Shown here piece by piece: positions 37,561-59,750 of a DNA stretch of 64,000 nucleotides (within the stretch, counting starts at the first letter, position 1; the number at the start of each line of letters is the position of its first letter). A program made the position numbers and the translations under genes. The notes beneath the pieces were generated by a model, which saw only the letters and a list, made by a program, of their open reading frames with translations, had not been told where the DNA came from and did no database searches. Source of the DNA: Yuukianura sp. NJ FZ-2021 (taxonomy: Eukaryota); assembly GCA_046563655.1 (NCBI GenBank), contig CM102285.1, positions 806,001-870,000 on the forward strand, in the 5' to 3' direction.

Positions 37561-39435
37561 ATGCGTTGCGATTTGGTTATCGTTTGTTGGTTCATTTTGC
37601 AAAAATTTTCCATCCCACAATTAACTAATATCCGAAAGTTCGAATTTTCCAAGCAGAGGACTTGTGAAACGTGGGTGGGTGTTGGACATAGGATTATCGA
37701 AAACCCGGATTTTCAAGCTCTTGAAAAAAACTTCGAAGTACTGCATACTCTTGTATTTTTTAGTTTAAACTTTTCAGAGTTCGGCGGGAATTTTCAATTT
37801 CAAAACTTCGAGTTTACTGACGACGACATCAACAGATCAATTTACTCTGGACCTCTTAAACTATCTGCCCAATGTCAATATGTTTTCATTGAAGACAGTG
37901 AGGTCAGTGACCTTGACCTCGTCACGAGAGCGGTCATTTCAAAAAAGTTGGTTCGACAACATCGTGACATTTTCTTCTATTTCGTGTCCAATACTCCAAA
38001 GTTTCCTTGGATAGAAGATAATGTTCGATTCAAGTTTTACGTTACGCAGAACGAAATTCACGACGCATTCGCAACTCTGAGTGGTCGTCGAATTCGGTTT
38101 GTCACAGTCAACGGCGTTCCGTGGATTCGGCATATCCATGGTAATAGAGCAACCGGATCGCAGTTTAACCTCATAGCCGATGCATCGGCACGCTTCAACT
38201 TTACATTTGAATTAGCGTATGCCCGAAATGGCGGTTTGGCAGGAGCCAAAAAAGATGGAAAATGGATCGGCGCAGTTGGAGACGTTTTTTACGGTTATGC
38301 AGACGTTACACTTGGAGCTGGAATCACTTCTGTCAGAAACACAGTAGTTCAAGGCGGGAAATCTCTTGCTGTCGTTTCGCGCGTGTTTTTCGTCAAATCC
38401 GCCCAAATGGAGCGTAACAGTTGGAAGTCAATTTTCTCTGCATTTCAAGGTTCAGTATGGGCAGGAATTCTAGTAACATTTTTCGTATTGACCGCCATGC
38501 TTATTTCGATTCTGCGCTTTTTCGCGCTAAAAGCGCGTGTAGTGATTGTTACCGACTCGGCACGAGATTTGAAATTCTGTTTTCCCGCTGAAGTGCTCAT
38601 GTCTGTCTATGCCATTGTTTTTGAACAAGTTTCGTCTACAGTGTCCTGGGTTAACAGAAAATTCAGTTTTTTGATTCTCTTATGGATGGGATTTTGTTTA
38701 ATTCTTCGCGCTGGGTACAAATCTCGACTTGTTTATTTTTTAACTTTTAGCGCTCCAGGTCATGTGCCTCTGACTCACCTAGAACTCCTTCAAAGCAACT
38801 ACGACATATACTTTAGGTATTACGGAGGCGTCGCTTATCGGTATGCACTGACCTCTGGTGACCCTGTCCAGAAAGCGCTTGCGCAAAAGTCGCTTCTGAT
38901 CAACTCCTCTCAGGAGTGCATTCTCCAAGCGCTGATCAGCGATAATGCTGCTTGTTTAGACTGGGAGCCACATGGAACTTATTCAATCTATTCCAATGCC
39001 ACTGCGCATTCTTCTGCGCAAAGTCGAATAATCAAGTCACTAGATGGGGCAATGAGCAACGTTTTTGTTCCTTGGTGTTACCGGAAGTACTCCCCATTAG
39101 CAGATCTGTTTGATCCCCATATTGAGTGGTCGATAAGCGCAGGAATTTTTGACCAATGGGTACGCGAGGATTCCGGAGAACTAAAGAGACAAGGTGTAAG
39201 ATGGCTTCAATCAATGGAGTCTGCGCCGCTCAACACAAAAATTCTTGAAATTTTGAAACCAATTTCGACTGAATTACCGAAGTTGAATTTAGGTAGTTTT
39301 GTAGGAGTGTTTGTCATTGCTTGTGGATGTTTAGTGTTAAGTTTTTTGGCGTTACTAGTCGAATTTTTACGCCAAAAATTTATTAACTTAGAAATAATAC
39401 TAGTACACAATTGTGTGAAAGATGTTGTATTTTAG
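37561..39435 (+). CDS. Ionotropic-receptor-like protein, type B, intronless (624 aa)
   Basis: S1-like GKWIGAVGDVFYGYADV; AFQGSVW-M1; VFEQ; LRAGYKSRLVYFLT; SAGIFDQW; final TM. Confidence 0.85.
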   Translation: MRCDLVIVCWFILQKFSIPQLTNIRKFEFSKQRTCETWVGVGHRIIENPDFQALEKNFEVLHTLVFFSLNFSEFGGNFQFQNFEFTDDDINRSIYSGPLKLSAQCQYVFIEDSEVSDLDLVTRAVISKKLVRQHRDIFFYFVSNTPKFPWIEDNVRFKFYVTQNEIHDAFATLSGRRIRFVTVNGVPWIRHIHGNRATGSQFNLIADASARFNFTFELAYARNGGLAGAKKDGKWIGAVGDVFYGYADVTLGAGITSVRNTVVQGGKSLAVVSRVFFVKSAQMERNSWKSIFSAFQGSVWAGILVTFFVLTAMLISILRFFALKARVVIVTDSARDLKFCFPAEVLMSVYAIVFEQVSSTVSWVNRKFSFLILLWMGFCLILRAGYKSRLVYFLTFSAPGHVPLTHLELLQSNYDIYFRYYGGVAYRYALTSGDPVQKALAQKSLLINSSQECILQALISDNAACLDWEPHGTYSIYSNATAHSSAQSRIIKSLDGAMSNVFVPWCYRKYSPLADLFDPHIEWSISAGIFDQWVREDSGELKRQGVRWLQSMESAPLNTKILEILKPISTELPKLNLGSFVGVFVIACGCLVLSFLALLVEFLRQKFINLEIILVHNCVKDVVF

Positions 39436-39585
39436 TTTCAATAATAAAATTAATATAATATAATATTTTTTCTCTCTTTAAAATGGTAAACCTTTGCAAT
39501 TTAGAGTGGGATAAATTTAGAATTAAGCTTGTCATTGACATTAAAATAATCTTTTGGAGTATACACACAAAGCAGGTAAAAATAT

Positions 39586-41115
39586 TCAAAACGTAAATGT
39601 TGATAATACACGATTGTTTGTATACTCAGAACGGAATGTCTTATGATGATTTGTGTATACATCGGTAGAGATACATCTTCCGCCTTGGAAATGATATATT
39701 TCAGTTGGGATAGGGTCACAGTTCACGGAAAATGCGTAGTATATGAAATATACAAACCTTGGCCTGGTCTGGGCGTGGTGACTGTTTTTAATCAGCAACT
39801 TAAAGTATTTGTACATTTTGCCCCAGGGGAGCCTGTTCCTTTGGTGCTCTTGACAGCTGAAAACATATGTATCTCTCTCATCGTTGAACATATGCTTACA
39901 AAAGTTATAAAAAAAGTTAAAGCACAGTGTTTCATCACAAACTTTAATTAAGATTACGCCGTTTGGGATATAATGTCCGTTGGAAATTTTTGGATTTGTA
40001 CATATTGAGTTGTCTGTTAAGTCGTATATATCCACGAAAGCCGAAAAATACTTGTGCTCATAGCTCTCAATAAGCGTTTCAATTTGCCCGGTAAGCTCTT
40101 CTTCTTCAATGCTACGTGAAATCAGCGACCTAAAATTCTCTCTGAATTGGTCCTCTGCATGAATAATTGCTTGAACAGTTGCTGGCTTAAGACCATGGTC
40201 GTTATTCATAGTCTCGTTCAGATATTCATGCAGCAAATCCTTCGAAACATGTATATACTCAAAGAGTTGGACTGCACGCTTGAGTAAAGCTGTAGGCAAC
40301 TTCGGAATTTTATAGGTTTTGATTTCCGCACCATAATGACTTTTAAGAAACATTAAAGGGACAAGGACATACACAATTGGTTTTTCTAGTTCCGCTGTAC
40401 TTTCTAGGCACTGGAATTGTACATGTGCTTTGATAGTACGGCAAGCTCCGCTATAATTCTGTGGAACCCCGATTGCCGAGCTGAGATCACTATAAAAACT
40501 TAGTGATACCTTACGAGAGATTTCAGGGTCACACGGTTTCAGCCCAGACCATTTGTAGCGTCCCGCTTCCGCATCAAGATGGAGCAAGAAATACTTCAAA
40601 TTTTGCTCCATGACAGTTGTAGGTTGCTCTTCTTCATTTCGGCATTTAGCAGTTACGAAATGATTTGCTCCCCATTTTACTTCTGCTACGAAATGAGTTG
40701 CCTCACATTCTTCAAGAGCCTTAAATAGAATGGCTTTGCAAAAATCTTCATTGTCGAGGTTGACTTTTTCATGCTTAGTGATGACTTGGGAGATCATAGA
40801 ACAAGTGATGTCCAGCGCGTAAGACTCTGGATTTTGCAAATATTTTCCTGATCCTTCCAGCTCAACTGTTCCGCTAAGAATATGCATGCTTAAGTTATCA
40901 TTTACTCCCAATTGGTATAAACGGTCTGAAATTTTGCTTGACCGGACTATATCATCAGATGCTGTTCGCTCGTAGGAAACAGTACGTACTCCATTGAGTA
41001 AATGATTTTCCGTAAAAATTATTTTGTCTTTGAAGGTATGCTGGCGACAGTCGTATAAATCTCCCAATTTAGCAACCGCTCCAAGTGCAGGGCGTGTAAG
41101 TATTTCCGATTCCAT
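39586..41115 (-). CDS. Stonustoxin/neoverrucotoxin-like (MACPF/CDC-type) protein, copy 1 (~509 aa)
   Basis: RPALGAVAKLGDLYDCR, VELEGSGKYL and ATHFVAEVKWGA match stonustoxin N-terminal motifs; no signal peptide; likely 5'UTR intron ~41125-41201. Confidence 0.8.
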   Translation of the reverse strand: MESEILTRPALGAVAKLGDLYDCRQHTFKDKIIFTENHLLNGVRTVSYERTASDDIVRSSKISDRLYQLGVNDNLSMHILSGTVELEGSGKYLQNPESYALDITCSMISQVITKHEKVNLDNEDFCKAILFKALEECEATHFVAEVKWGANHFVTAKCRNEEEQPTTVMEQNLKYFLLHLDAEAGRYKWSGLKPCDPEISRKVSLSFYSDLSSAIGVPQNYSGACRTIKAHVQFQCLESTAELEKPIVYVLVPLMFLKSHYGAEIKTYKIPKLPTALLKRAVQLFEYIHVSKDLLHEYLNETMNNDHGLKPATVQAIIHAEDQFRENFRSLISRSIEEEELTGQIETLIESYEHKYFSAFVDIYDLTDNSICTNPKISNGHYIPNGVILIKVCDETLCFNFFYNFCKHMFNDERDTYVFSCQEHQRNRLPWGKMYKYFKLLIKNSHHAQTRPRFVYFIYYAFSVNCDPIPTEIYHFQGGRCISTDVYTNHHKTFRSEYTNNRVLSTFTF

Positions 41116-43400
41116 TTTCAGTAATGCTAGAAAAAGAAACACTCTGTACTGTATATGTTAGTCAAATGATGCAAATTATTGATTCTAAAATATTGCCTTA
41201 CCTTTAGTAACCGTCGTTCCTGAAATCAAAATTGTTGTGTGCTGTGTGGTTGTTTCTGCTTCTATTTTTGATAGATTGGAGTTGTTTTGTTAGTTTCAGA
41301 GGAAGAGGACGAATGAATTGCAAAGTGCATACTCTATATAACACAATTGTATCAGGCCATACTCGACCATCCAATAGCCGACAACGCAAAAGGCGACATT
41401 ACAATCGGCCACAATTTTGAAAGCCTAGTATTCTAAAGGCGACCATCAATAACAGACAACGGCTAACGCTGACGAAATTAAATACGGGCTATACTATAAT
41501 CAGGATAGGATATTTTACCGTGTATTATGTAAGGTCCGTAAACAAAAACAAAACTTTTTGTTCTCCAATAACTCTGGTTTTCCACTATTTTGACAAAATT
41601 TGCAAACATGAAGCCGGTTGAGTTACGCGTCCATCTCTATTGGCAATTTTTCACTTTTTACCACCTTTCTTTTTATTTCTATGCAACTTACAATGTTCAT
41701 CGTTGGAGAACAAAAGTGGAAAAAATTGAACAAAATTGGTTCTACTTTGGTCCTACAAGTTGTTTGAAACAAGATTTTTGCAAATCCAGATTTATTGGGT
41801 AATCTGTTGTTGGGATTATAGTTCGCTTGAAACGAAACCTAAGGTTAGGTTAATTTGAATTACGACGTAGGTATTTGATTTGGTAAAAGCATAACTAGTT
41901 TTTAATTTTGTTGGGTTTAGGGTTGTCGGCTTTTGGATTCTCCACTATGTCCTGTAACCCACTATGACTTTACTTGATTACATCATAAGCACTAAACTTG
42001 AATGTATCAAAACACCAGAAACTCATCCTGAGTCATAGAACTTTTGTAGCAGTGACTAATGCAGAAGTTCTGTTGGGCATGACGCTACTATGCAATAAGC
42101 CACTTTCTTCGTCTTCATCCTCCAAAGGCACGTAGTCGATGGGATTGCAGTAAATAAAAAGTAGTTGAAACACTTTGTATTGCTTTAAAGTAATGAAGAA
42201 GAGTATTTTATGTTTCCATTTTCTTCTTATTTTTTAAATATTTTATTATGCTGTTCGTTGCTATTTCACTTGGGAAATCCTATTCTCGTTGTAAAACATA
42301 CAATTCCAGCGCTCATTTTCAAAATCTGCAATGTGTTGCTGCCGAGGTCCCATTGCATGTGGAAAATGAAAATTCTGTCTGATTCTCCTAATAAAATAGA
42401 TTAATTCTTCTTCTTTTTTTTTGGCGAAAAGGAAAGCCTTGGAACAGATGAAAGTGGAACTTTATTAAATTAAAGTAGATACCCCTGAAGTTGCTTTTTT
42501 TCTTAGCGGAAAGCCGTATAACGTAACTTTTTTGACACCAAAACTCCCATTTAAAGTAAAGATTTATTAAAAATTTGTGCAGAATCATGCTGTTTGACAT
42601 GATACCCTGGAATTGGGTCAAACAGCTACATTGCTACATTTAGGAACTGTGAACATTCATTTATTTTTCACTTTTGCAATTTTTTTAACCAAACTTAAAT
42701 TAAATATGCCGCACCCGACCCCGCGCCCCTTTTTTGCACGCGGGCGCACCCCTCTGCTACTCCAAACTTGTGAACAGCTTATTTGATACAGATAATAAAT
42801 GTGGAGGCAGTCTAACGGTATTTCGGTCGATTTTTGACATTTCAAAAATCGATCGGTTTTAACGTAGTTGCTTTACTTTACATAGAACCGAATTTTAAAA
42901 GGGTTGCTCTCGTATCACGTGTCTCTACGTTTAGACGTATCATTTCAACCTTCCAGTCATAAGTTAACTTTGCAGTTAAACGTGCGAGAGAAAGCTGACG
43001 TCAGCAAACGCACGTTCTACGTTCAAACCTATGATTTCAATTCCTGTAATAGCTGAAGATTTATTCCGAAAATTTATTAACTAGAAAAACAAAACACAAA
43101 ATTGGCTGAAAGATGTTTTTTTTATTTCGATAATAAAATTAACATAATATAGTAAATTTTTTCTCGCTTTGCCTCTGCAACATTACAACTCATTCTTAAA
43201 CATGGTTTGGACAGGACTTATTTTCCACTTGTACATAATGATATACAATGTTGTTGACGTAATGGTATAAACAGCAAACAGAAGTTAGCCTAGTATTTTC
43301 AAAATTGTGGGTGGAGTTACGATATTGCGTTGCACACTTTTGCGTGAACAACACTGTATCTACACATAAACACACTGATGTATATTGGTTTAAAATGTAG

Positions 43401-43849
43401 AGGAAAACGTGAAGAACCATATCCTCATGTTTCGTGCTTGAGAACAAAATGGCGGTAATTCTGATCTTGAATTTTACGTGGAAAAAGAAAAGAAATTTCA
43501 AATCGACAGGGGAATGTACGTTGAAAATTTGCACTACCTCGGTGAATACGGGTTCGGAAGAGTTGGCGGATATTTGCAGTCTGGAATTTTGGAATATTTG
43601 AATTCTCGATTTGAGCGGGAAGAAGGGCGCCTTTTTGCCGCCAGGTTAAATCAAAGACGTCAATCAACAAAACAACCAACAAAACTTGGACTCAATATAA
43701 ACATCCAGACGTTTTTCTTCTCGACTTTGCTCACAGCAGCTTGTTTTCTCTTTTTGTTCGAAATTCGTTCAAAAGTAGCCACTATTTTTCCTAATTTGTT
43801 TCAACGCTTTACCTTTGGAAAAAATTTGATTACAAATATACAACATTAA
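43401..43849 (+). pseudogene. Orphan exon 2 of a type A IR
   Basis: EKEKKFQIDRGMYVENLHYLGEYG...; frameshifted 5' part; no exon 1 upstream. Confidence 0.75.
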
Positions 43850-44799
43850 AACATTGAAATTTGCCAATACACAGTTCAACATGTGATTACCACCACATTT
43901 AAAATCAGGAGAACCAATAAAAGATCGAATTGAAACCCTGGAATCTAATTTCAATTCTTTCTACTCACCTCAAAGTTATCCTACTTTCCAAAAGCAATGT
44001 CAAAAGTAACATATTTTCAGGAAAATTTACAATTACGACCTAACAATTCACAAACTGAGCTTATTCCTAATCCCAATCTTCTTTCTAGTAAAAGCAAAAC
44101 CTGGTAAAGTTTTCACTTCAGTTTCATACTTCAAATGAAGGTGGGTAACCAAACAAACAAATTGTTTCTTATAAGTTTTTTTTTTTTGGTTTTCACATTA
44201 TTTACTAACTCAAACATTTGTAAACATACACCTGCCCAAATTGTTTATTCTACACCAGGTTATTCAGTAACTCGATGTTTTTAATTTTCTCAAATAATTT
44301 GCAAAACATGCGTCGCCGTGCCTTTCTATGGTAATGATTTGTATGTAATTGAATAAGAATTGGGGGAAAATTGAAGGAAAAATTGTTTGGAGGAAGATTT
44401 TTGCAAACCCCGAGTTACTGAATAACCTGGTGTAGCAAATGCAACTTGTTGTATTTCGGTTGTCAAGGCACCTTGCTTCAAATTTAAGGAAAATCAATAA
44501 TACAAAGTTTTATCGCTACTTACGTATACTACAATATATTTCATCTGTTAAGAATGGGTATGTTATATCAGTTAAACCAAAAATACAAAAATAAAATATA
44601 CATTGTATTTGCATCAAAGCATTACATAATTTATATAAAAGTAAATAAAAGCATTAAAATTCATACTACTTGTTGTAGGAATTCAAAATTTGTTGAAATT
44701 CAACCAATTACTAGAGCAGGTACAAGGTCAGTCCAAAGGTTAGACGGAATGAATATGATTGGCAATGCTAGTAGTATAAGTGGGAAATAAAAGTTTTAC

Positions 44800-45165: not shown

Positions 45166-45983
45166 AATTACACAAAAACAGTAAGCCATATACGTTTCCC
45201 GGTTACTGTATTAAGATGCAGCAAGAACATATCAAATTCCGCTTATCAGAAAACCTTTTCATGTAAAATAGAAATAATATAAGAATAAAATAATAATAAA
45301 GTATGAAATTCTACCAGTAAGTTTAGTAAGAGCCTTCAAGCTTGTTCGCTTGGCCTAAATTTTGTAAGGTTAAAAAGCAAATTTAAAATTAGGAATCTGA
45401 TTTCAATTCTTTCTTCTGACATCAATGCTAGTCTATTTTCCTAAACGATGTCAAGCATAATATTTTCAGCAAAATTTATAATTATTACTAGAGCTGCCAA
45501 ACATATACAATTAAATATAAGATATTTTAATATTGAAAAAACATATTTCGGGAAAAAAGAAAATTGCAATTATTTACGAAAATTCTAATTATTTGACAAC
45601 ATTTGAAAATATATCAAGTGGTTAACGTGATGTTTAGTTAATAACGTGAAAAAGTGAGTTAATAACGGAATTCAAGCTCAGACCTTTTTTAACGCAAATT
45701 TACCTGTTCCCCCACAAATACTGCCACATTTAGTAACTATTTAGGTTGAGGAAGTATTTCCGGGTTTTGATAGTAAATATTTAATAAATATTCCATTGGT
45801 TTTTAGCACATATTTTTGAAAGCTCCAATTATGGCCTAAAAATTAGCAGTGACTTTATTTCAAATCGCAATCTTCCTTCTATTAAAAGCAAATGCCCATC
45901 AAATTGTCAGTTCAGTTTCATTCTTCACGTTTACGAAGAATCAAGAGGTTACTAATCAAACTATTTCTAAAAAAAATAGCAAA

Positions 45984-47542
45984 ATGGTCATTTCCAACAT
46001 TCCTGTTTTCCTGATCCTGATCTTGAATTTACTAAATCTAGGCTTGGGAGATGTGGTGACTTAGTAAGTACAATTATTAATTCTATACTTATTAAGGTAC
46101 CGAGGGGATGCTATGGCTGCATTCTGCCTGTCCGTCTGTCTGTCATTTAACTGATATATGGACAGAGTTCGGTCGAAGTAAACTTGGCTCCCCCGCCTGT
46201 CCCCACCCGTTCAAATTTTCGCGGTACTTCAATTGTCCCCACCCATTGTCCCCACCTGGTGGGGACAAATGTCCCCACTTGGTGGGGACAAATGTGTACC
46301 CACCAGCCGTACACCGAGTCCCCCTAGCGGCTGAAGTGGAACTTGCGAATTCGAGCTGGCAACGTTGTAGCATTGCTCCATTGTACCCACCCAGGGCAGA
46401 TGTAATCAACAAAGCGAAACTCAATAAGTCAAACCTACAGACGTAATCAGTATTTCGTGCTTAACCAAACCTAACGCCGCGCCTTCGGCGCGGGAAAATA
46501 TAACAGGATTTGCCAAATCAAAAAGGAAATAACGTTGCCAGCTTGAATTCAGAGGTTACTGGATTGCCGCTAGGTGGACGTACTGCTTCTGGTTGTGGTG
46601 GGGACAAATGTATCCATCCGGTGGGGACACTGGGTGGGTACAATGGAGGCAGCGCGAAAATTTGAACGGGTGGGGACAGGCGGGGGAGCCAAGTTTACTT
46701 CAACCCAGAGTTCACATCTATTTTCACAAACATACGTTATATCTGCTATACTATATACTACTATGTTTTGTACATATAGAATCTAGTATATTTCTTTATC
46801 AAACCTAGTATATAATTAGTTTTAATTAATTTAAGTATGTAGTCCACATTTTTTGCTAAAGTTTTAATGTGTGACATGTATTTTTAGTGACGTGGAGTGC
46901 GGAGCACCCTGTGAGAAAAAATGTAAAGACAAAGGATTTGAGTTTGAAAAGTGTGGAAAAGGAGCAAAGTACAGTAGTAGCCCGAATGACCATAGATCCA
47001 TAGGAAGAGTACCCAACTACTGCACTTGTACTACTCCGCCATGCAAAAATGGAATGGAACGTTGTAAAAATGTCTTGAAATTGGAATGTGGTGGATGGGA
47101 AGCTTCAGTTTATTGTAATCCCAAATCAAATCAGTGTGAATGTACGTGCGACCCTGTCAAATGCAACAAGTATTGTGCTGACATGGGCAAAGAGTTTGGA
47201 GGGAAATGTGTAGACGATGTTTCCTACGGATTGAATTGTTTGTGTAACGAGCCGCCTGGAGGTCAGGGTGACTGTAATACGCTAAAGAAGCAATTAGAAG
47301 CACTCGTCTACTGTAAGCGAAATTATGAAGAGTACAAACACTGCCTTGATTATGGAGAGTTGGTTTGTGTTCCTCAACCAAAAGGAGTTAAGGGCAAACG
47401 AAATCCATGCAAATGTAATTGCTTCGCAATCGAATGTATGGAATATTGCAAGTCAAGCAATAAAATTGGAAAATGTAAGCCATTGGCTACAGAAAGAGCA
47501 AAAATGAAAAAATGGCAGGGAGAAACTTGTGAATGTACCTAA
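45984..47542 (+). CDS. Secreted 30-Cys protein with five tandem defensin-like modules, copy 1 (244 aa; exons 45984-46063, 46888-47542)
   Basis: Signal-peptide exon, phase-2 GTAAGT/TTTTAG intron, five 6-Cys blocks each ending CxC, Lys-rich. Confidence 0.8.
46171..46705. mobile_element. MITE, GG termini, 8-bp TSD CAGAGTTC
   Basis: GGTCGAAGTAAACTTGGCTCCCCCG / CGGGGGAGCCAAGTTTACTTCAACC; TSD at 46163-46170 and 46706-46713; intronic. Confidence 0.85.
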
Positions 47543-48006
47543 CTTCTTTGTTGTTAACGGAACATGTTTCATGTTAAAAATCAGCAGTAGTTTAGTAGAG
47601 ATTCAACAAAATTTACTTTATCTTATAAACCCTACCTAAAAATTGGCTTGAAACACTATCTATACAAAATTAAATCAATCTAACCTAAGCTAACCTAAAC
47701 CCGACATGTTACGATTTCCGGATTACGTCATATGAATGTTAAATCTCACTAACATTGTGTTGCAAAAAATAAAAATAAATTGGATCTTGGATTTCATCTT
47801 GGTTTGTAAGTAATTTTTGCGTCTAAGGTTTTGGAAAAGTTGCTCTTCATTTGGACTTTTTTATTTGTCGAACCGCAGGGTAGCAGAATTTCATAAATGT
47901 AAAATAATTCACTAAAAATTAATTTTAATCAAATCAAAAATTGAATGCAGTTTCTTCAAGGAAAAACTATCCACTTTTGTCTATCCACTTTTGTCGGCGA
48001 GTCAGG

Positions 48007-48458
48007 CTGCTTGTTTAGACTGGGAGCCACATGGAACGTATTCAATCTATTCCAATGCCACTGCGCATTCTTCTGCGCAGAGTCGAATAATCAAGTCATT
48101 GGTGCAATGAGCAACGTCTTTGTTCCTTGGTGCTATCGTAAATATTCTCCATTAACAGACTTGTTGATTCCCATGTTGAGTGGTTGATGAGTGCGGAAAT
48201 TTACGCGAGGATTCGGGGGAACTAAAAAGACAAGATGTACGATGGCTTCATTCAAAGCAGTCTGCGCCGCTAAATACAAAAATTCTGGAAATTTTGAAAC
48301 CAAGTTTGACGGCATTACCGAAGTTGAATTTACGTAGTTTTGCAGTAGTGTTTTTCATTGGGAACGGAGGTTTAGTGTTGAGTTTTAAGTTTTTACAAAA
48401 AAACTTTTTGATAGCTAGTTTACAACACAATTGTCTGAAATTTGATGTTTTATTTTAG
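48007..48458 (+). pseudogene. Type B IR 3' fragment
   Basis: Aligns with 38947-39435 with several indels. Confidence 0.75.
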
Positions 48459-48902
48459 TTTCCATAATGAAATTAATATAATACAAAAAGCTTAAACAAT
48501 TCATAATACCGTACAAAAACGAAGGAAATATCGGATTTGGATGAGTTTAAAATAAATAATTAATTTTAGCAAGGAAAGAAATTCGTTTTCGTATTATTTT
48601 GTAATTTTAAATTTGAAATTTGTTGAATTTCGCGCTAAATTCTTAATTTCTTCCATCCACTAAAAGTTCCGTCCATTTTGGGTGAATTTCTTCCACTGGA
48701 TATCCCGTGGAAGTGGCAATTAAGCCACTGTACGTTTAAGCATCCACCAACACTGAGCATAGTGCATTACCATTTTCTACTTTTTCTTTGAAATTTGATC
48801 TCACTTTGTCACCGCTTTTAGAAAATCTAAGTAATGAGGGAACTGAAAATGCATTTATCGGCTACATTCGCAGGAGTCTGTGCCGCTCTTTAAAAAATTC
48901 CT

Positions 48903-49358
48903 TGAAATTTTGAAACTAACGAGGGAACATTCGCAATCGGATGTCAACTCTTTGAATTTGAAAAATACAGTCATATTCTGTATGCCAAAATAAAATTTTC
49001 TGCAGTAGTTTCGGTTGCCAACGGCAAAAAAAGTACTCCTACTTGGAATCAAACCCTCAGCCCCACTCCAGAAAAAAGAGAACAAGTATATTTACGTCGA
49101 ATTATTCAACAGAAAACGTCCAGATTGTATAATATAATATCCTAAACACGTTTTCTGTTGAAAAATTCAAAGTAAAAAAATAAATATTTTCTCATTCCTC
49201 TGGAGTGGGGCCACGGGTTTGAGCCCATATTGGGGTAATTTTTTCTTGGCGTTGGAAACCGAAAAATTTTCCTTTGACATACAAAATATGACTGTACTTT
49301 TCAAATTCAAACCCTTGGCGGCCGGTTGGGAATGTCCCCTCGTTAGTTAGAATCTTCA
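48903..49358. mobile_element. MITE with long imperfect TIRs
   Basis: AACTAACGAGGGAACATTC...GAATGTCCCCTCGTTAGTT; inverted CCCCACTCCAGA/TCTGGAGTGGGG. Confidence 0.65.
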
Positions 49359-49670
49359 TGGTTGCTGATTTGGCCTAAATTTTGTAAGGTTAAATTGGAT
49401 TTAAAATTAGGAATCTAATTTCAATTCTTTCTTAATGACATCAAAGTTACTCTATTTTCCTAAATCATGTCAAGTATAGTATATTTTGAGCAAAATTTAC
49501 AATTTATCATAAACTATGAATTCACCAAGTGACCTAAACCCAATTCTTAATCCCAATGTTCCTTCTATTAAAAGTAAATGATCGTAAAATTATCACCTCA
49601 GTTTCGTTCTATACGTTTAAGGAAACTCAATGAGCTTTTAACCACACTATTTCTAAAAAGAATTATCAAA

Positions 49671-51296
49671 ATGGGTATTTCCAACATCTTTGTTTTGCTC
49701 TTTCTGAGTTTGATTTCGCCAAAGCGCAACTTGGCAGATGTGGTGACTTAGTAAGTAAAATTAATTGATTCTACTTATTTTATTATTGTACCGAAGGAAT
49801 CAAGGTTCCTTGACAACAAAAAATTTTGTTTAACTTTTCGGGAAGAGGTTACGTACTACCTCACTTGTTGGCAAAAAATTAAAAAAAAAAACAAAAATTG
49901 GTACCAATCCGAAAGCAGTATTGGTACAATTTTTTTTTTAATTTTTTCTTTTGGCAACAAGTGAGGGAGGTACCTCTTCCTTCCTTGACAACGAAAGGTT
50001 AATTTTGTTTAACTTTTCGTTGTCAAGAAACCTTTGAATGTATTTTATGGTTTCATCCTGCCTGTATGTCTGTCTGTCTGTCTGGCTGAGTGTGTGTCTG
50101 TTTGTCTGTCTGTCTGACTATGTGTCTGTCTGTCTGTCTGACTGGGTGTCTGTCTGTCTGACTGTGTGTCTGTCTGTCTGTCTGTGTGTCTGTCTGACTG
50201 GGTGTCTGTCTGTCTGACTGTCGGACTGTGTGTCTGCCTGTCTGTTTGTCTGATTGGGTGTCTGTCTGTCTGACTGCGTGTTTGTCTGTCTGTGTGTCTG
50301 TCTGACTGTGTGTTTGTCTGTCTGTGTGTCTGTCTGACTGTGTGTCTGTCTGTCTGTCTCTCTGTCAGTCAGTGAGTCATTTAATTAATATAGGCAGAAG
50401 TCGGATCTGTTTTCACAGATAATTTGCTAATTTGCTGATAGCGCATGTTAAGCAAATCGCGCGTTTTGTTGAACCTCTTTCATGTTTGAAAGGTCTAGAG
50501 TCACAAACAAACATTACAACTGCTATTTAGCAGTGTACTATTTCCTATTCATATTTACTACATAATTTTAATTCGCCTAAGTATTTAGTCCAGATTTTGT
50601 TGCTCAAGTTTAAATAAGTATCTTTTTAGTGATGTGGCTTGCGGAGAATCCTGTGAAAAGAAATGTACAGACAAAGGATATACATTTTCGAAGTGTGCAA
50701 CTGGAGCAAGGTACAGTGATGACAGGCATGACCAAAGTTACGGAGGAACACTGCCCAATTACTGCACTTGTACTACTCCGCCATGCACAAATGGCAAGGA
50801 ACGGTGTAAAAATGGTAAGTTGAAGTTTGAATGTAAGGAATGGAAAGGCTCACTTTATTGCAATCCCAAAACAAATCAATGTGAGTGTACGTGCGATCCT
50901 GTCAAATGCGACCAATACTGTCTGGACAACGGCTACAAGTTCGGAGCAAAATGTAAAGACGATGTTTCCTTTGGATTGAGTTGTAAGTGTAACAAACCGC
51001 CTGGAACTGGAGGTCCAAAAGAGTGTGACACGATGACGAACGTAATAAAGGCACTGTCCAAATGTACTGACAGATATGCAGAGTACACAGATTGCTTTGA
51101 ATACGGAGACTTGGTTTGTGCTCCTCAACCAAAGGAAATTAAAAAATATCGAAATCCGTGCAAATGTAATTGCAACGCAGACAAATGTACGACATTTTGC
51201 AAGTCAAAGAAAAAAATGGCGGGAAAATGTAAGCCATTGGATACGACCAAAGCAAAAAAGTACAATTGGCAGGGAGAAACTTGCAAATGTACCTAA
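49671..51296 (+). CDS. Secreted 30-Cys protein with five tandem defensin-like modules, copy 2 (248 aa; exons 49671-49750, 50630-51296)
   Basis: Same exon phase and cysteine skeleton as copy 1. Confidence 0.8.
49801..50036. mobile_element. hAT-like MITE (CAAGGTTCCTTGACAAC family)
   Basis: TIRs CAAGGTTCCTTGACAAC / GTTGTCAAGAAACCTTTG; absent from the paralogous intron. Confidence 0.65.
50060..50370. repeat. Compound (TGTC)n microsatellite
   Basis: ~300 bp of TGTC/TGAC/TGTG units. Confidence 0.95.
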
Positions 51297-52297
51297 CTTT
51301 CTTTTTGCTAACGAACCATGATTCATGTCAAAACTCTACTGTAGCTGTGTAACTATCCAAATTTGATTGGTCCAATAACCTTACCTAAGAATCTGTATGA
51401 GAAAGTACCTGCAGAATTAAATCAAACTAACATAATAATTAACCTGAACCTAGCAGAAATATAAAACCGAAAATGGGAAGGATAGTCTTCGAGAAGACGT
51501 TTGCGGTTGTTTTGCTTGGAATGAGCAACAACATTCAAACTCTGTTTGCATCAACTTTCACTCTGCTAGCAGTCGCCATTTCTTTTTGTTCAAAATTCGC
51601 TCATAGTCTCAACATTTATAAAATTGCTTTATTGGATTCGTAATTTAGAAATGAACGGAAATATGAGAAAATCATTTCGAAAAATATTCGATTTGAAACT
51701 GGAGAGTAAGTACTCTACAATTTTTTGTACTACTGAGAGTATGAATCCGTAATGACATTATTTTAAGTAGGTATCTTAATCTCTTTCCAAAAAAATTGAA
51801 AATTTAAAAAACAAAATTTAAAAAGTAAGTATTTAATAATTTGTGCAAGGCTTATTACAAATTGTAACTCTTATTTCTCTCAGCGTAAAGCCGTAAACCA
51901 AAATTTTTGGAAGAGTCTGAAAAAAAAAACTTACTGAATTCATCAATAAAATTACTATTAAAAATTTGATAAAGAACGATGTTGTTTGACACACACGACA
52001 GCCTGGAATTGTGCTAAGACGGCTCCATTGCATGTTGAAATCGTTTGGACTTATGTGCCGTACCCAATAACTAATTCAAAATAAACTAGGAGTTTACATC
52101 ACAATAAATGTATTTTATCAATATTATTACCTTGACAAATTATAAAACAAAAAGTTTCTTGTTAAATTTATAACGCTTTGAACACATCTATCTTTCACAA
52201 CTCATTGCGTGTTCTATTCAAGACTTATTCGTCAGTGGTGAACGATTCTTTTACTTTACGTTACTCCCATTACTTCGGAAATTTTTAAATTTCAAAA

Positions 52298-54918
52298 ATG
52301 ATGTCACAATTTGGATTTTTCGCAAATTTGTTAGCGTTTACGTGTAGCCTTGAAACTGTCACTATCGACTACAACAAATACCTTGCTCCATACGAGGCCA
52401 CTTGTCACTCAGTTGTTTTTGTAGTCACATTTGACTATGTTGACCTCGTTCCGTTCACTTCTCCTGTTGAACTACGGACATTAGGCTACATTGGCCCACG
52501 AACTTTAGTTTCTGACGCATGTCCATTCACAAATTCAACAACTCGGGATCTGATTAATCAGCGGATTGGGTATCTCTGGCAAACGTTGACAAAACGTTCT
52601 TGTCTTGCAATGTTTGTCAACTACCAATCTGGATTGGTGGACCACTATTGGACCATTCTAATGTACCAACTACATTACTTCTGGAGTGTATTCCACTTAC
52701 ACTCACATCCATTTGATCGCACTAGACAAAGTGAGACGATGGAAAAAATGGTCGCGGATCCATACTCAAGATATTTCATCACCTTTGGAAGATCTGCGTA
52801 TTTGAACGTAGTCGGAAGTTCTCGGATTTCTGGTAAATTTCAAGAAAGTTTCTATGCATATGCGTATGTAAAGAGGTATTGCATTTGGTCCTGCCAAGAA
52901 ATACGTCTCGTCTGCGCACCGGTCTTTGCGCATGTTTTTTTCCATGACGTCGATACACCAAATCAACTCAAAAGTGTATCATGTATTCTTCTAATACCGC
53001 CTGCCACTACTCTATCGCCTGGCCAACGGCAACAAGCCCTCGTTGTTACAAATACACCCATTGCAGCACTTTCACTTCAAGAATTGGCGCGAATTTCACT
53101 CGTCAAAAGAAATAAGTGCGGAAATTTCAAGTTCCAAATTCTAAGTGTCCAACCACTTCAATCCCAAAATAATTTTCTTCTGAGTGAAACCAAGCATGAA
53201 GTAGACATGATTGGCAACATAGCGGAAACTGGAACAGACATAGACAAAAATTTGGAGCTGCACAATCTCATGCTTGGAAAATTAATGTTTGGCGCCATTC
53301 CAAATACAACGGTCCACGTACTTCGCGTTGCTCATGGTAACTCATACTTTCAAAAGGTCTACTTGGATTTTAAATCCTTCACTACCTACTTCAGAATCCA
53401 AGGTAATTCGCATCAACCGTATGGCTCAACTGAACATTACGTTGCCACGGAAACAGTCGCATACACGTTCTTAGCATGTCATCACTCAGTGCATGGCATG
53501 TCCTTTGATTCATACGTTAAGCCTCTTGACCCCGAAGTTTGGATTGCTCTGACCTTGACCTTGACCTTGGTCATTCTACTCTCATTTTACTTTTTACTCA
53601 AAAGAGACAACCAACTACCGTTCTTCATCTACGCTTACATTATGGAACAAGGTCCAAGTCTACGCGCAGCCACTCAGGATCTGCGCATGTTCAAACTCCT
53701 CATCATGTCACTGTCGATCATCACGATCATTCTGGGCAATGGCTACCGGAGTGTCGTCACAACGGAACTTTTGGCGCCAAAACTCGCCTCTCGCTTGGAA
53801 ACTTTTGAAGATATTAAAGGCTTAGGAGACAAAAGACATAAAATGTATTACCGCCCCACAGATCATAGCACCCTATTCACTGTCTGTTTGGACGAATCTA
53901 GTTCCTTAAGCTGTCTTGTTAATCAACTTGTGGTTAATCCACACCAACCTCACCAAAGAATCATACGGTATGACGCATATTTGAGAAGACGACTTGAAAA
54001 CAGCACGGAAAGTGGTGGTAACTTCTCAGAAAAATTGTCAAAACTATTCCAATGGGGTAGCTTACTACGAATAATGGATGATCCCGTGGCATTCCAATGG
54101 ACCGACGAAGAATGTGAAGCTAACGTTTACTTTAGCACAGGTAACAAACTATAACATGTTATGTACATATTTATAACCACCAACATATATTTTATACACA
54201 TGAATTCCATACCGATACGTACACATAGCATACATTGTTGATATATGATATGTATCGTATCATAACACAATGTATGCTATTTGTTTGGTATCGGTATGGA
54301 ATTCATGCGTATAATAATATGTAATTTTTTATTGTGTACTAATACACAATTGAGTACTATCAGACGATACACTATGTTAGTACGACGTTGTATATACGTA
54401 GTGTTGAAATAATTAACATAATTAATGCATTGGTTTAAAATATAGCGGAAGACGTGAATAAGCAAATCCTTGTGTTTCGAGATCAACAAAAGCAGAGTGG
54501 CAAAAATCCTGACCTTGATTTTTACTTGGGAAAAGAAAAGAAATTTGAAAACGACAGAGGAATTTATATTGAAAATTTGGCCTACCTCGGTGAATACGGG
54601 TTCAGAAGAGTTGGCGGAACTTTGCAGTCTGGAATTTTGGAATATTTGAATTCTCGATTTGAGCGGGAAAAGGAGCGCCTTTTTGCCGCCAGGTTAAATC
54701 AAACACGCCAATCAACAAAAAAACCAACAAAACTTGGACTCAACATAAACATCCAGACGTTGTTCTTCTCAAATTTGACTTTACTCACAGCTGCTTCTTT
54801 TCTATATTTATTGGAACTTGGATCAAAAGTAGCCACTACTTTTCAAAATTTGTTGCAAAGTTTAAAATCAAATTTAAGAAAGAAATTTTGCTACAAGTTT
54901 AAAAATAGAAAGCATTGA
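52298..54918 (+). CDS. Divergent ionotropic-receptor-like protein, type A copy 2 (771 aa; exons 52298-54140, 54446-54918)
   Basis: Paralog of 34590-37279 with the same phase-1 intron. Confidence 0.75.
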
Positions 54919-55049
54919 AGTTTGGCAATTCTACAATGCATCTATATTGTCTCTACCTGCCATAATTCTTGTCGGTTAGTGACTTGACACATTATCATTA
55001 GTAATTAATTAACATTAGTAACCATCGCTTGACTATGCGCTACACCCTT

Positions 55050-55355
55050 AGCGATTCCATGTAATAAGATGGAAAAAAGCAAGTAATAAGGTCGCAGAGA
55101 TAATTAGTCGCAGGTAATTAATAAGGTCGTAAAGTAAAAAGAGCGCAAGTGAAATGGTCATAATGTAAGAAGATCGCTGTTGCGATCATTTTACTTCCGA
55201 TCAATTCACTTTTCGACCTTTTTATATTGCGATCTTTTCACATTGTGACCATTTCACTTGCGATCTTTTTACTTTGCGACCTTATTACTTGCGACCGTAT
55301 TACCTGCGATCTTATTACTTGCGACCAAAATATTTCGACCTTATTACCTGCTACG
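55050..55355. mobile_element. MITE-like insertion with inverted arrays of ~20-bp repeats
   Basis: AAGGTCGCAA units on the left, TTGCGACC units on the right; absent from paralogous spacers at 34075 and 37345. Confidence 0.6.
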
Positions 55356-55513
55356 CCCTTAGCATTGCTGTAGGTTACAGCACAAGCAAAAGAAAATCAA
55401 TATACTTCTTATGAATTTTTAATTAGTTGCATCATCATGCCCAAGTGGAAAATTGTGTAAGCCTTCAACTCTGTTTAATTACAGTAAAATGAGTAAATTA
55501 TGTTCTGTGTAAT

Positions 55514-57355
55514 TTTTTGAATTTGAATTTGAATTTTATTTTACCAAATGGTGCCCTGTTGACAGGTCATTATACCATGGCTTATTTAAATATGACAGCT
55601 TTGAGCTTTAAGGTTACACAAGGAATTAAAAAAAAAATAACGAAGTAAGGTGAATTAAGTGTGTTTAAAAAAAGAATTAAGAATTAAAAGTTTTAAGATT
55701 GAAATCGAAGTAAGCTGGAGTTTGAAATATTTAGTCGTAACTTAAAGTTTAAGAGTTTAAAACAATCATGAAGAGTCATAGTCACTGAAATATTGATCCG
55801 AATCTTCATGAGGTTCTGTAGAAGTCGATTGAAGTTGCACATTTAAAAAGAATGTTGTCAGTTTACCCTTACTGCTGGGTTTCGGTTTTGTAACTAGCAG
55901 TTTATGCTCTTCAGATAGCGAATTTAAGATTTTTGACACTGCTGTGATGAAAGATTTAGGATGATATGTACGGTTATGAACAATGTACGTTCCTTTTCTT
56001 GTTGAGGTAGTATTTTCTGAATAAGCCCCGATTTCATTTGGCATTGAACTGAAATACGGGATATTGTGTTCAATAATTGAAGAGTAGATGAAAAGGTGAT
56101 CCACGGTGCTCAAGTAGTGAGGTAAAAGCCAATTTAATCGTTGGACCGACGAATTCACACAATCACGTTTTTTCAATCCGAAAATGTAACGGATACACCG
56201 TCGAAATGTTTTGTTCACATAGTTGAATTTGTAGTGCTTTGCTTTTGACCAAAGTACTATTAGGTAGCGTATTACTGGATATATGTATGCGCTGATCATT
56301 AGTTTTCTGTTCTGGAACGACAATAAGTGTTGAATTGGATGAAGAGACCATAGTATTTTGTTACACTTTTTAACAACGCTGGTTATGTGCTCAGTCCATG
56401 AAAGAGTGTTGTCCAGTATCAAGCCAAGCGTTTTAAAAGAATCGACGTTCTCAATTTCGGTGTCACCTACTTTGACTTGAAATCGACCAATACTTTTTAT
56501 TTGGCTTGCTTTCCCAATAAGAAGCACTTTTGTTTTCTCTAAACTCAGACCCATGTGGTTGTGATGAGTCCAGGAGGTTATGGAGGAAATTGTTTCTTCA
56601 GTTCTTCTGATTAATTGACGAAACTGGTCTGGCGGGCTTCCCATGACGATGTTGTTGTCATCCGCGAAAAGCACTGGTACTCCGTCTTTAATTGCAAGTG
56701 GGAGATCGTTTATCATAATGGAGAACAGGAACGGACCCAGTACTGAGCCTTGAGGAACTGATAAAATGGTTTCTCTGGATTGTGACGTCTCACCATTTAC
56801 CCGTACACTTTGAGATCTATCGTTCAAATATGATTCAAACCACGAAGATGAAACGTTGTACCATCGCAGTTTTTCACAAAGAATGCCCTTGTTTACAGTG
56901 TCGAAAGCTTTCTTTAAATCCATTGAAATAACCATACACAAATCACCGCGATTTAGATGGCTATAAATTAGTTCGGTGAGGGCTATTTGTGCCATTGTGG
57001 TAGAATGATGATCACGAAAACCAAATTGTGCACTACTGAGTAAACTGTGGCGATTGAAGAATAATTTTAGCTGATTGAGGGCGAACTTTTCACATAATTT
57101 CGCAATTACTGGTTGTAGAGAAATTGGGCGAGTTTCGTTTGGATGTGATGGTTTGGGTACTTTAGGTAGCGGTATTACCGATGAATGTTTGAGACATTTA
57201 GGGAAAGTTCCACTTCTCAGCGTTTTGTTGATAAGGTAGATGATCTGTTTTTCAATATTAGGTGATCCAAGGCAGTGTGCTAATATCCAGTTTGACATTC
57301 CAAAATTATCTTTGCTTTTGCTATTCTTGTTTTTTAGATTCTTCCAAGTTTGCTT
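55514..57355 (-). mobile_element. 5'-truncated non-LTR retrotransposon (CR1/L2-like LINE); RT ORF 57355-55766
   Basis: RPISL, QFGFR, DLKKAFDTV, VPQGSVLGP and FADD motifs; AATAAA followed by an (ATTCAA)n tail; no endonuclease domain. Confidence 0.92.
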
Positions 57356-57407
57356 TGTACAATGAAAATTTCAGTTTCAGCACAGTTAGTTGTTCAATTG
57401 AAGCAAA

Positions 57408-59227
57408 ATGCGTTCCTTTTTGACAATCATTTCTTGTTTCGTTTTTCAAAACTTTTCCTTTACACAACTAACTAAAATTCGAAATTTCGAGTTTTTCAAA
57501 ACGAGTACTTGTGAAACGTGGGTGGGCGTTGGAAGTAGGATTTTCGAAAACTCGGAATTTCAAACTCTTGAAAAAAGTTTCAATGTACTGCACAGTTTTG
57601 TATTTTTTAGTTTAAACTTGACAGAATTTGGTGGGGAATTTTAAATTTCAAAACGTAGAATTCACTGACGATGACGTCTACCACTCAATATACTCCGGAC
57701 CCCACAGACATTCTGCCCAATGTCAACTTGTTTTCATTGAAGAAGCTGAGATGAATGACCTTGACCTCGTGACCCGAGCGGCAATTTCAAAAAAGTTGGT
57801 TCGACAACATCGTGACAGCTTTTTCTATTCGGTGTTCATTACTCCAAAGTTTCCTTGGATAGAAGACAATGTTCGGTTCAAATTTTACGTTACGCAGAGC
57901 GAAATTCGCGACGCAAGTGCAACTTTGAGCGGTCGCAGGATTCGGTTTGTAGCAGTCAGCGGTGGATTCGTCATATCCAGGATAATAAAGCAATCGGGTC
58001 GCAGTTTAACCTCATTGCCGATGCATCGGCACGCTTCAACTTTACATTCGAATTAGCGTATGCCCAAAATGGCGGTTTGGCGGGAGTCAGAAGAGATGGA
58101 AAATGGATCGGCGCAATTGGAGACGTTTTTTACGGCCATGCAGACGTTACACTAGGAGCTGGAATCACTTCTGTCAGAAACACGGTCGTTCAAGGCGGGA
58201 AATCTCTCGCTGTCGTTTCGCGCGTCTTTTTCGTATAATCCGCTCAAATGGCGCGTAACAGTTGGAGGTCAATTTTTTCTGCATTTCATGTTTCAGTATG
58301 GGCGGGAATTCTAGTAATATTTTTTATATTGACTGCCGTGCTTCTTTGGATCCTCCACGTTTTCGCCGTAAAAGCGCGTCTCGTAATTACAACCGACTCC
58401 GCACGAAATTTAAAATTCTGTTTTCCCGCCGAAGTGCTCATGTCAGTTTTTCCCATTGTTTTTGAACAAGTTTCGGAGAGTTGACCTGGGTCAACCAAAA
58501 ATTCAGTTTTTTGATTCTCTTATGGATGGGGGTTTGTTTAATTCTTCGCGCCGGATACAAATCTGGACTGGTTTATTTTTTAACTTTTAGCGGTCCAGGT
58601 CACGTGCCTCTCACTCACTTGGAACTACTTGAAAGCAACTACGATATATACTTTAGATATTACGGGGGCGTGGCTTATCGCTATGCACTGACCTCTGGTG
58701 ACCCCGTTCAGAAAGCGCTTGCTCAAAAGTCGCTTCTGATCAACTCCTCTCAGGAGTGCATTCTCCAAGGGTTGATCAGTGATAATGCTGCATGTCTCGA
58801 TTGGGAGCCACATGGAACTTATTCTATCTATTCCAATGCCACTGCGCATTCTTCTGCGCAGAGTCGAATAATCAAGTCACTAGATGGGGCAATGAGCAAT
58901 GTTTTTGTTCCTTGGTGTTACCGAAAGTACTCCCCAGTAACAGACCTGTTTGATCCCCATTTTGAGTGGTTGATTAGCGCAGGAATTTTTGGCCAATGGG
59001 TACGCGAGGATTCCGGAGAACTAAAAAGACAAGGTGTACGGTGGCTTCACTCAAAGGAGTCTGCGCCGCTCAATACAAAAATTATGGAAATTTTGAAACC
59101 AAGTGCGATTGAATTGCCCAAGTTGAATTCAGGCGGTTTTATTGGAGTATTTTTCATTGCGAGTGTATGCTTAGTGTTAAGTTTTGTGACGTTAGTGGCG
59201 GAATTTTTACGCCAAAAATTTTGTTAG
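57408..59227 (+). pseudogene. Type B IR pseudogene
   Basis: Full-length paralog of 37561-39435 with frameshifts (~57637, ~57960, ~58478) and TAA at 58236-58238. Confidence 0.85.
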
Positions 59228-59750
59228 TGAGAAATATACAACACAATTGACTGCACTTACTTCACGTAGCTCATTGAATGTCCAAACTATTCGGATTTTA
59301 AGTACTTATTGCCTATTACTGCTAATTCAATAGAATATATACATTTGCAGGCCAATTAACGAAGGAGTATATACTATGTAGAATGTAGGTACCTTTTAAA
59401 CGTTAGGAAAACCTGACTTTAAATTGGAAAACTTTAAATTCGGGCAAATTTCTTACACCAACAGAAATAATTGCGGAAGTCGAGGTTGGTAATCAAGCAG
59501 ATTGTTTTTGCTAAATATAATATTTAATAATAATGTAAATCTAATAAGATATATAAGATGTTGTTATAGAAAATACAGTATGGTTGTCAACGAACCTAAT
59601 CTAAAGAAAACGAAGTCTCAAATTCCAAATTCTTTAAACATTAATCTATGTAGGTACTATATCTATGTTTCCGGTTCAATCAAATTAAAATAAATTTGCA
59701 TTAAACTGATTTTGTGGAGCATGAACACAAAGAAAGTAACTTAAGAATAT

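Follow-up and report, generated by a model that had tools for sequence, protein, structure and literature searches.

Two tandem springtail genes for putative secreted proteins in which defensin-like modules alternate with an unrecognised six-cysteine module

We analysed a stretch of 64,000 nucleotides from the springtail Yuukianura sp. NJ FZ-2021 (assembly GCA_046563655.1, contig CM102285.1, positions 806,001 to 870,000; hereafter the window), in which an original prediction made from the DNA letters had placed two genes for cysteine-rich proteins at 45984-51296. Both genes were found there, each with a leader exon followed by a cysteine-rich exon. Gene 1 (45984-47542) and gene 2 (49671-51296) lie in tandem and share the same two-exon layout (Table 1), and a tblastn search within the 64-kb window found just these two cysteine-rich genes. 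Their open frames are 224 and 235 codons long, where base composition leads one to expect ~0.015 frames of this length per window. The phase 2 intron interrupts a codon that reads TAT in both genes. Both introns carry inserts: a ~540-bp inverted-repeat element with repeated GGTGGGGACAAATG-like motifs in gene 1 (~46160-46700), and a ~240-bp hairpin plus a ~300-bp (CTGT)n-type microsatellite in gene 2 (49790-50360). The last ~90 nt of the gene 1 intron, together with its TTTTTAG acceptor, are conserved with gene 2.

Similarity between the paralogs at the DNA level starts ~20 nt 5' of TATTAAAAG, spans the leader exon and the splice sites and extends ~190 nt beyond the stop codon, where it takes in an ATTAAA hexamer and decays just downstream of it. 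The distance from TATTAAAAG to TCAGTT is ~34 nt, and both motifs and their spacing are common to the two genes; the TCAGT core is presumably the arthropod initiator. Conservation of the promoter, leader, splice sites and ATTAAA is what two working transcription units would be expected to show; they would be expressed and spliced, and their products secreted.

The proteins are 60% identical (E 1e-92), and both frames are intact at a synonymous divergence (dS) of 0.39. All 30 cysteines are kept between the paralogs, as against 103 of the 187 other residues (55%), an outcome with a probability of ~2e-8 at the non-cysteine rate. The cysteine spacings differ by one- or two-residue loop indels, so that the predicted picture of fixed cysteines and varying loops was borne out. 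The ratio of nonsynonymous to synonymous substitution rates (dN/dS; Nei-Gojobori, two paralogs) was 0.66 for the whole protein (Fisher p 0.046). Module by module, from 1 to 5, it was 0.73, 0.30, 0.37, 0.83 and 2.0. Module 2 thus shows the strongest purifying selection in the protein, and modules 2 and 3 jointly are under purifying selection (Fisher p 0.002); the value of 2.0 in module 5 is not significant (p 0.36, from two sequences only).

Table 1. Features of the two cysteine-rich genes (positions in the window).
Feature	Positions	Strand	Remarks
Gene 1 core promoter	45880..45917	+	TATA-like TATTAAAAG at 45880; initiator-like TCAGTT at 45912
Gene 1 exon 1, coding part	45984..46063	+	start codon 45984; 26 codons plus TA; hydrophobic signal-peptide-like leader
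Gene 1 intron, phase 2	46064..46887	+	GTAAGT donor at 46064; AG acceptor 46886-46887, as TTTTTAG
Gene 1 exon 2, coding sequence	46888..47542	+	217 aa, 30 Cys, TAA stop
Gene 1 module 1, type A	46898..47029	+	CxxxCxxxC..C..CxC, spacing 3,3,9,22,1
Gene 1 module 2, type B	47042..47143	+	spacing 6,7,8,6,1
Gene 1 module 3, type A	47147..47245	+	spacing 4,3,10,9,1; canonical CS-alpha-beta framework
Gene 1 module 4, type B	47273..47416	+	spacing 12,9,7,13,1
Gene 1 module 5, type A	47420..47536	+	spacing 4,3,8,17,1; GKC motif
Gene 1 candidate polyadenylation signal ATTAAA	47669..47674	+	127 nt past stop; kept in gene 2
Gene 2 core promoter	49566..49603	+	TATTAAAAG at 49566; TCAGTT at 49598
Gene 2 exon 1, coding part	49671..49750	+	signal-peptide-like leader; GTAAGT donor at 49751
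Gene 2 intron, phase 2	49751..50629	+	hairpin repeat and (CTGT)n microsatellite inside
Gene 2 exon 2, coding sequence	50630..51296	+	221 aa, 30 Cys
Gene 2 modules 1-5	50640-50771, 50784-50888, 50892-50990, 51024-51167, 51171-51290	+	
Gene 2 candidate polyadenylation signal ATTAAA	51416..51421	+	

The 30 cysteines fall into five blocks of six, and every block closes with CxC. Along the chain, the spacings within and between blocks are 3,3,9,22,1 / 4 / 6,7(8),8,6,1 / 1 / 4,3,10,9,1 / 9(11) / 12,9,7,13,1 / 1 / 4,3,8(9),17,1 (gene 2 in brackets where it differs). Blocks 1, 3 and 5, which we call type A, read C-x3-4-C-x3-C-x8-10-C-x9-22-C-x-C; this is the six-cysteine framework of the cysteine-stabilised alpha-beta (CS-alpha-beta) fold, and 6 of the 6 A modules of both genes have it. 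In blocks 2 and 4 (type B), 7-9 residues replace the x3 between the second and third cysteines (7 or 8 in module 2, 9 in module 4). The original prediction had described the same five blocks, with CxxxC in 1, 3 and 5 only and a widened spacing in 2 and 4. It had also seen a GKC motif in modules 3 and 5, which holds for gene 1; in gene 2 the motif is present in module 5 only, and module 3 reads GAKC. A gamma-core-like G-x-C-x(3-9)-C occurs in gene 1 module 3 only.

We then asked what the A modules resemble. A profile built from the six A modules gave 10 matches at E <=10 among PDB sequences. All 10 were either nasonin-1M or short scorpion-type potassium-channel (K-channel) toxins, one of these a designer toxin; the two best matches had E 0.042 and 0.062, and nasonin-1M followed at E 0.26. 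Searched alone with phmmer, module 1 matched 4 PDB sequences (E 0.5-0.7), each of them either an alpha-KTx-type K-channel toxin or a designer toxin, and both PDB matches of module 3 were plant defensins (E 0.17-0.45). The gene 2 module 5 search returned noise only. In Pfam, module 3 gave SLR1-BP (E 0.0016, 19.2 bits against a cut-off of 22.7), Toxin_3 (E 0.037, 14.7 bits against 21.5), a sub-threshold Gamma-thionin (E 1.8) and hEGF (E 0.13, 13.2 bits against 29.3), and gene 2 module 5 gave SLR1-BP (E 0.14). Apart from hEGF, these families are of the defensin or scorpion-toxin type; none of the modules reached the threshold of any family tried in this clan (Defensin_2, Toxin_3, Gamma-thionin, SLR1-BP).

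Structure prediction led to the same kind of fold. The AlphaFold check suggested with the original prediction was run with AlphaFold2 (AF2) on the full-length protein and on modules 2-3, the latter with an alignment of the four B-A units as input (mean predicted local distance difference test score, pLDDT, 73.4). In the modules 2-3 model, module 3 forms a helix that bears the CxxxC motif and then two strands, the last of which carries CxC (pLDDT ~78-85). In the full-length model, module 1 was predicted at low confidence as a helix (6-14) and strands at 18-23 and 44-48. A Foldseek search with the modules 2-3 model listed 47 rows, 29 of which are by title defensins, scorpion toxins or brazzein; alignments of 30-38 columns superposed at 1.2-2.8 Å, and several longer scorpion-toxin or brazzein rows at up to ~8 Å. 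When the Foldseek matches were re-aligned with VIA, 420 chains aligned, 52 of them with Z >=2, and the best 50 of these 52 were all defensins, scorpion toxins, brazzein or similar. The top re-alignment match was BmBKTx1, which superposed on module 3 at 1.0 Å over 31 of 31 residues (Z 3.5). VIA was also run as an unbiased search of 48,161 chains. Z reached 2 or more for 23 of them, and 17 of these, the 13 best-scoring included, were CS-alpha-beta structures, navitoxin among them, with root-mean-square deviations (rmsd) of 0.9-2.9 Å. In this search, module 3 superposed on termicin at 0.9 Å over 30 residues and on BmBKTx1 at 1.2 Å over 31. For nasonin-1M the figures were 1.0 Å, 30 of 33 residues, Z 2.4 and 37% identity. 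Low Z values are normal for 30-residue domains, yet they are unconvincing alone.

These results are individually weak and point in one direction: the A modules are very probably CS-alpha-beta domains. The cysteine framework and the weak sequence matches thus support the defensin-like character claimed for modules 1, 3 and 5, and module 3 adds a predicted fold of one helix and two strands that lies within 0.9-1.2 Å of known CS-alpha-beta structures. An epidermal growth factor (EGF) or trypsin inhibitor-like (TIL) fold, with no helix, had been named as an outcome that would overturn the assignment. We discarded it: a helix is predicted in modules 1-3, the hEGF score is far below its cut-off, and the Notch/EGF rows of the Foldseek search have TM 0.18-0.21 and rmsd 10-13 Å.

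The B modules behaved differently. A B-module profile had 0 matches at E <=10 among PDB sequences, and Pfam gave no family for them. Aligning the A and B profiles with hhalign recovered similarity only at linker residues shared by both alignments. Module 2 alone had a sole PDB match, to pleiotrophin, through a C-G-x-W..V-x-C-x-P..C stretch; at E 2.9 this is non-significant and a lead only. The PDB matches of module 4 alone, to antibody frameworks and RPS4, were noise. AF2 predicted module 2 in two runs as a longer helix plus a hairpin (pLDDT 58-76). Since the B modules are without CxxxC and without profile similarity to A modules, PDB or Pfam, the module order reads as A-B-A-B-A and not as five defensins. 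The name penta-defensin is therefore supported for its three defensin-type modules and not for modules 2 and 4.

A strict penta-defensin would have B modules that are CS-alpha-beta domains with a C2-C3 helix one to two turns longer, and all five modules would share one fold and one origin. The B modules do keep six cysteines and end in CxC. Moreover, module 2 came out as helix-strand-strand in both AF2 runs, with C2 on the helix, C3 just past it and CxC on the last strand, and by a simple geometric argument cysteines eight apart on a helix could reach the CxC pair. On the other side, CxxxC is absent and the spacing that replaces it is not constant between modules 2 and 4; the profile comparison matched shared linker residues only; neither PDB sequences at E <=10 nor Pfam returned anything for B; the pLDDT of module 2 is just 58-76; and the rows that match known small folds never aligned to module 2. 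We regard a single fold for all five modules as doubtful, with an appreciable chance of being right.

The modules also bear on how the A-B-A-B-A chain arose. Modules 2 and 4 are alike at the PP linker, at a G-x-L-V/Y-C-x-P segment and at N-x-C-x-C, and identity between the B-A units is 30-34%. Their BLASTP alignments (E 5e-4 to 8e-4) centre on the junction, and this likeness points to a single internal duplication of such a unit. Pairwise comparison of modules with the cysteine positions fixed left a slight residual similarity (z <=1.9).

Whole-protein searches returned no relatives. Pfam had 0 families at E <=10, and phmmer against the PDB gave myosin and antibody noise only. A word-indexed homologue search with the gene 1 protein produced 30 candidates, none at E <=0.01; the 3 candidates that it yielded for the A-module profile all had E >1. 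In an exhaustive phmmer search of 1.84 billion representative proteins we found no homologue; the sole match (E 2e-4) is a cysteine-poor repeat protein that we judged spurious. The ESM Atlas held no usable match for the whole protein or module 4, and a scan of metagenome contigs gave 27 pattern matches, 0 of which were confirmed. Metallothionein was also considered and rejected. Metallothioneins are intracellular, have a far higher share of cysteine in CxC/CxxC clusters and lack regular secondary structure; the proteins here have a signal-like leader and 13.6-13.8% cysteine, and the Metallothi_Euk2 match (E 0.96) reached 10.3 bits where the cut-off is 27.

Several properties of the chain concern its likely fate. 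The leader exon encodes 26 mostly hydrophobic residues, from which we infer that the protein is secreted. As predicted, it is rich in lysine (13.8% and 15.8% in the two proteins), with a net charge of +8 and +13 and a pI of 8.4 and 8.7. The two B-to-A junctions consist of a single residue between cysteines (CECTC and CKCNC, the same in both genes); the A-to-B linkers have 4 and 9-11 residues with PP present, so the minimal linkers of the original prediction are found at the former and not at the latter. We found no dibasic site (KR/RR) in a linker of either protein. Dibasic pairs occur inside modules only, and not all of them are conserved between the paralogs. With linkers that lack dibasic sites and junctions of one residue, the protein probably stays uncleaved, and the secreted and uncleaved appearance noted earlier was reproduced.

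Chains of this kind have precedents. Nasonin-2 and nasonin-6 of Nasonia vitripennis contain 4-5 tandem nasonin-like defensin domains "without protease processing signals" (Tian et al. 2010, PMC2853521), and such repeats are said there to be described for fungal defensin-like peptides (Zhu 2008, cited by PMC2853521). MtDef5 is a bi-domain plant defensin with two 50-residue domains and a 7-residue linker and is potently antifungal at sub-micromolar concentration (PMC5700942). Thus, with nasonin-2, nasonin-6 and MtDef5 in print, the concept of a multi-domain CS-alpha-beta protein is not new, and the nasonins are, judging by the portions of these papers available to us, its closest published analogue. 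What holds of the predicted "undescribed multidomain family" is a sequence family that was free of homologues in our searches.

Like nasonin-2 and nasonin-6 as the available text describes them, the proteins here begin with a signal peptide or a signal-peptide-like leader and continue with several six-cysteine units without processing signals, five in our case, three of them defensin-like. A short n-loop and genes in tandem duplicates are shared with the nasonins as well. The likeness extends to nasonin-1, the single-domain prototype (PDB 2kp0), through the A-profile match at E 0.26 and the superposition of module 3 at 1.0 Å. The gene structures differ: each domain of nasonin-6 has its own exon, with phase-1 introns drawn between exons according to the legend of Fig. 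11 (PMC2853521), whereas all five modules here are on one exon and the sole intron, in phase 2, follows the leader. Furthermore, two module types alternate here and two of the junctions are a single residue, unlike in nasonin-2 and nasonin-6. The comparison with these two is one of published descriptions, and the nasonin-1M match, at E 0.26, falls short of significant sequence homology.

The scorpion toxins offer a second comparison. The alpha-KTx 3 toxins (agitoxin 2, kaliotoxin, BmKTX), as well as BmBKTx1, tamapin, cobatoxin and MarkTX-7, share the CS-alpha-beta framework with the A modules, and C-x-K-x-C-K-D-x-G-x-x-F-x-K-C of modules 1 and 3 aligns with the toxin sequence C-x-K-P-C-K-D-A-G-M-R-F-G-K-C. 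However, the toxins are single peptides of 29-38 residues with a tight hairpin, whereas here 9-22 residues separate C4 from C5 and five modules are chained; all E values for these toxins are above 0.04. MtDef5 and the fungal multi-domain proteins resemble our pair, as far as the sources at hand describe them, in holding several CS-alpha-beta domains in one uncleaved cationic secreted chain. Plant defensins differ in having eight cysteines and a third strand and show no sequence homology to the proteins here, and MtDef5 has two like domains where these have five of two kinds.

Within springtails, a survey of five species found single-domain defensins in one only, Sminthurus viridis, as precursors of 63-72 residues with the motif C-x5-6-C-x3-C-x9-10-C-x7-C-x-C (PMC10051947). 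That six-cysteine motif is like that of the A modules, and the proteins differ in being single-domain. The accessible text of the survey reports no multi-domain form, and the words "tandem", "repeat" and "multi-domain" are absent from it. Our literature search found no paper on a multi-domain defensin in springtails.

Taken together, these observations lead us to propose, with moderate confidence, that the locus holds two tandem, functional genes for a secreted, intact, multi-module host-defence effector with an A-B-A-B-A layout. A cationic chain of ~24 kDa would be secreted and stay whole, with up to 15 disulfides. Each A module would be a cis-defensin (CS-alpha-beta) domain with a short n-loop, nearest in shape and sequence to nasonin-1, termicin and the short scorpion K-channel toxins; each B module would be a six-cysteine unit, predicted to have a longer helix and a beta-hairpin, that is fused to the next A module by CxCxC; and the B-A pair was probably duplicated once within the gene. 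By analogy, several defensin modules could bind microbial envelopes at once, making the protein a multivalent host-defence effector. The host-defence part of the proposal is based on the linkers without dibasic sites, the charge of +8 and +13, the tandem duplication, the fast-evolving loops and the precedent of nasonin-1 and MtDef5.

A number of observations weigh against this proposal. No match reached significance: the best Pfam score was 19.2 against 22.7, the best PDB match had E 0.042, Z did not exceed 3.5, and Foldseek gave nothing at E <=0.001. The matches of the A modules are carried largely by the cysteine framework itself. In the full-length AF2 model, made from a single sequence, the pLDDT is 49.7 overall and <50 in modules 4 and 5, and the Foldseek and VIA matches of this model are helical noise from low-confidence regions. 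The fold-search rows that match known small folds aligned to module 3, none to module 2 alone, and the B modules appear to be a different six-cysteine unit without a recognised fold. Finally, the net charge is only moderate, module 3 being neutral to slightly acidic, and nothing in the 64-kb window links the gene pair to immunity.

The same architecture could also serve a purpose other than killing microbes, as an ion-channel ligand, a protease inhibitor, a signalling ligand or a cross-linked component of matrix, cuticle or egg coat. In sequence, the A modules indeed come closest to K-channel toxins and not to antibacterial defensins, and the nasonins too resemble cobatoxin, with diverse functions, protease inhibition among them, proposed for the repeated domains (PMC2853521). 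In the pair studied here, the gamma-core-like motif is limited to a single module of one gene, the hairpin loops are long (9-22 residues), and the weak, non-significant match of module 2 is to pleiotrophin (E 2.9), a lysine-rich heparin-binding protein. To our knowledge, springtails are not venomous, and we know of no venom apparatus in the group. A cationic, lysine-rich, secreted and fast-evolving tandem pair (dN/dS 0.66 overall and 2.0 in module 5, the latter not significant at p 0.36) is the usual signature of an immune effector, and no result of this analysis supports one of the alternative roles. We therefore consider such a role unlikely.

Two further explanations are very improbable. 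Multi-peptide antimicrobial peptide precursors exist in other groups, and cleavage is conceivable within the PP-containing linkers (4 and 9-11 residues), yet a polyprotein precursor that yields five separate six-cysteine peptides would have to be processed at 2 of 4 junctions with one residue between cysteines and no room for a processing site, in a chain whose KR/RR pairs lie within modules, where not all are conserved, and in no linker. That the genes are non-functional (duplicates that are not expressed or are decaying, or an error in the gene model) would fit the absence of the protein from the searched protein collections and the fairly high dN/dS of modules 1, 4 and 5, and it is opposed by the two intact frames, the 30 retained cysteines, the purifying selection on modules 2 and 3 and the conservation of promoter, splice sites and polyadenylation signal.

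The secreted A-B-A-B-A effector allows a bolder version, which we think unlikely to hold in full: B would be an undescribed six-cysteine helix-hairpin fold, B-A, joined through the CxCxC junction, a rigid 12-cysteine super-module, and A-(B-A)-(B-A) a lineage-restricted multivalent immune effector. If this were true, proteins of the A-(B-A)-(B-A) class could take the place of the classical single-domain defensins that the survey failed to detect in 4 of its 5 springtail species (PMC10051947).

Other features of the window also came to light. On the minus strand, two paralogous single-exon open reading frames (ORFs), 39586-41157 and 59751-61268, contain the Pfam domain MACPF_SNTX (E 6e-14 and 2e-10), a stonustoxin-type perforin-like domain, plus DUF7656. 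They flank the cysteine-rich pair, one lying ~5 kb upstream and the other ~8 kb downstream. With such candidate pore formers beside defensin-like genes, this could be a defence neighbourhood or a coincidence. The MACPF_SNTX gene belongs to a three-gene block that is present twice as a segmental duplication (34500-43850 and 52289-62600), together with an unnamed ORF of 620-670 aa without a Pfam match and an ionotropic-receptor-like ORF (Lig_chan E 1e-6). In the second copy of the block the receptor ORF is in pieces (57622-59227), and just upstream of these lies an ORF for a reverse transcriptase (RVT_1, E 3e-29; 55766-57370, minus strand). Between the two cysteine-rich genes, at ~47990-48330 (plus strand), lies a fragment that corresponds to the C-terminal portion of the ionotropic-receptor-like ORF at 37555-39435 and is broken by stops; it has the look of a pseudogene remnant of the duplications.

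Further away, 2735-26020 holds arrays of paralogous ORFs with hydrophobic segments, for example 2735-3193, 20384-20869 and 24539-25192, and a second paralogous set (16500-17006, 21527-22060, 25493-26020). Three array ORFs were searched against Pfam (12034-12753, 24539-25192 and 25493-26020) and gave no match; the arrays may be exons of a lineage-specific chemoreceptor-like family. At 26880-29424 (plus strand), one ORF encodes a DZIP3-type HEPN domain (E 3e-7); the next, 618 aa long, has TPR, Sel1 and, at its C terminus, a MYND zinc finger. Both may belong to a single gene.

Uncleaved multi-domain defensins are rare, and in the literature consulted here their function was studied for MtDef5 and not for the nasonins. 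The impact of our pair is limited, in that the concept is already published and the expression and activity of the proteins are putative. The pair adds a case for which no sequence relatives could be detected, and it comes from an animal group in which few recognisable antimicrobial peptides have been reported; its main points of interest are the unrecognised B module and the absence of relatives in our searches. Its defensin modules alternate with a cysteine module that no search recognised and on which purifying selection is stronger than elsewhere in the protein. The B module may thus be a new small disulfide-rich scaffold. If the proteins are active, they would offer a naturally occurring system for asking whether defensin folds linked in a chain gain avidity or a new specificity.

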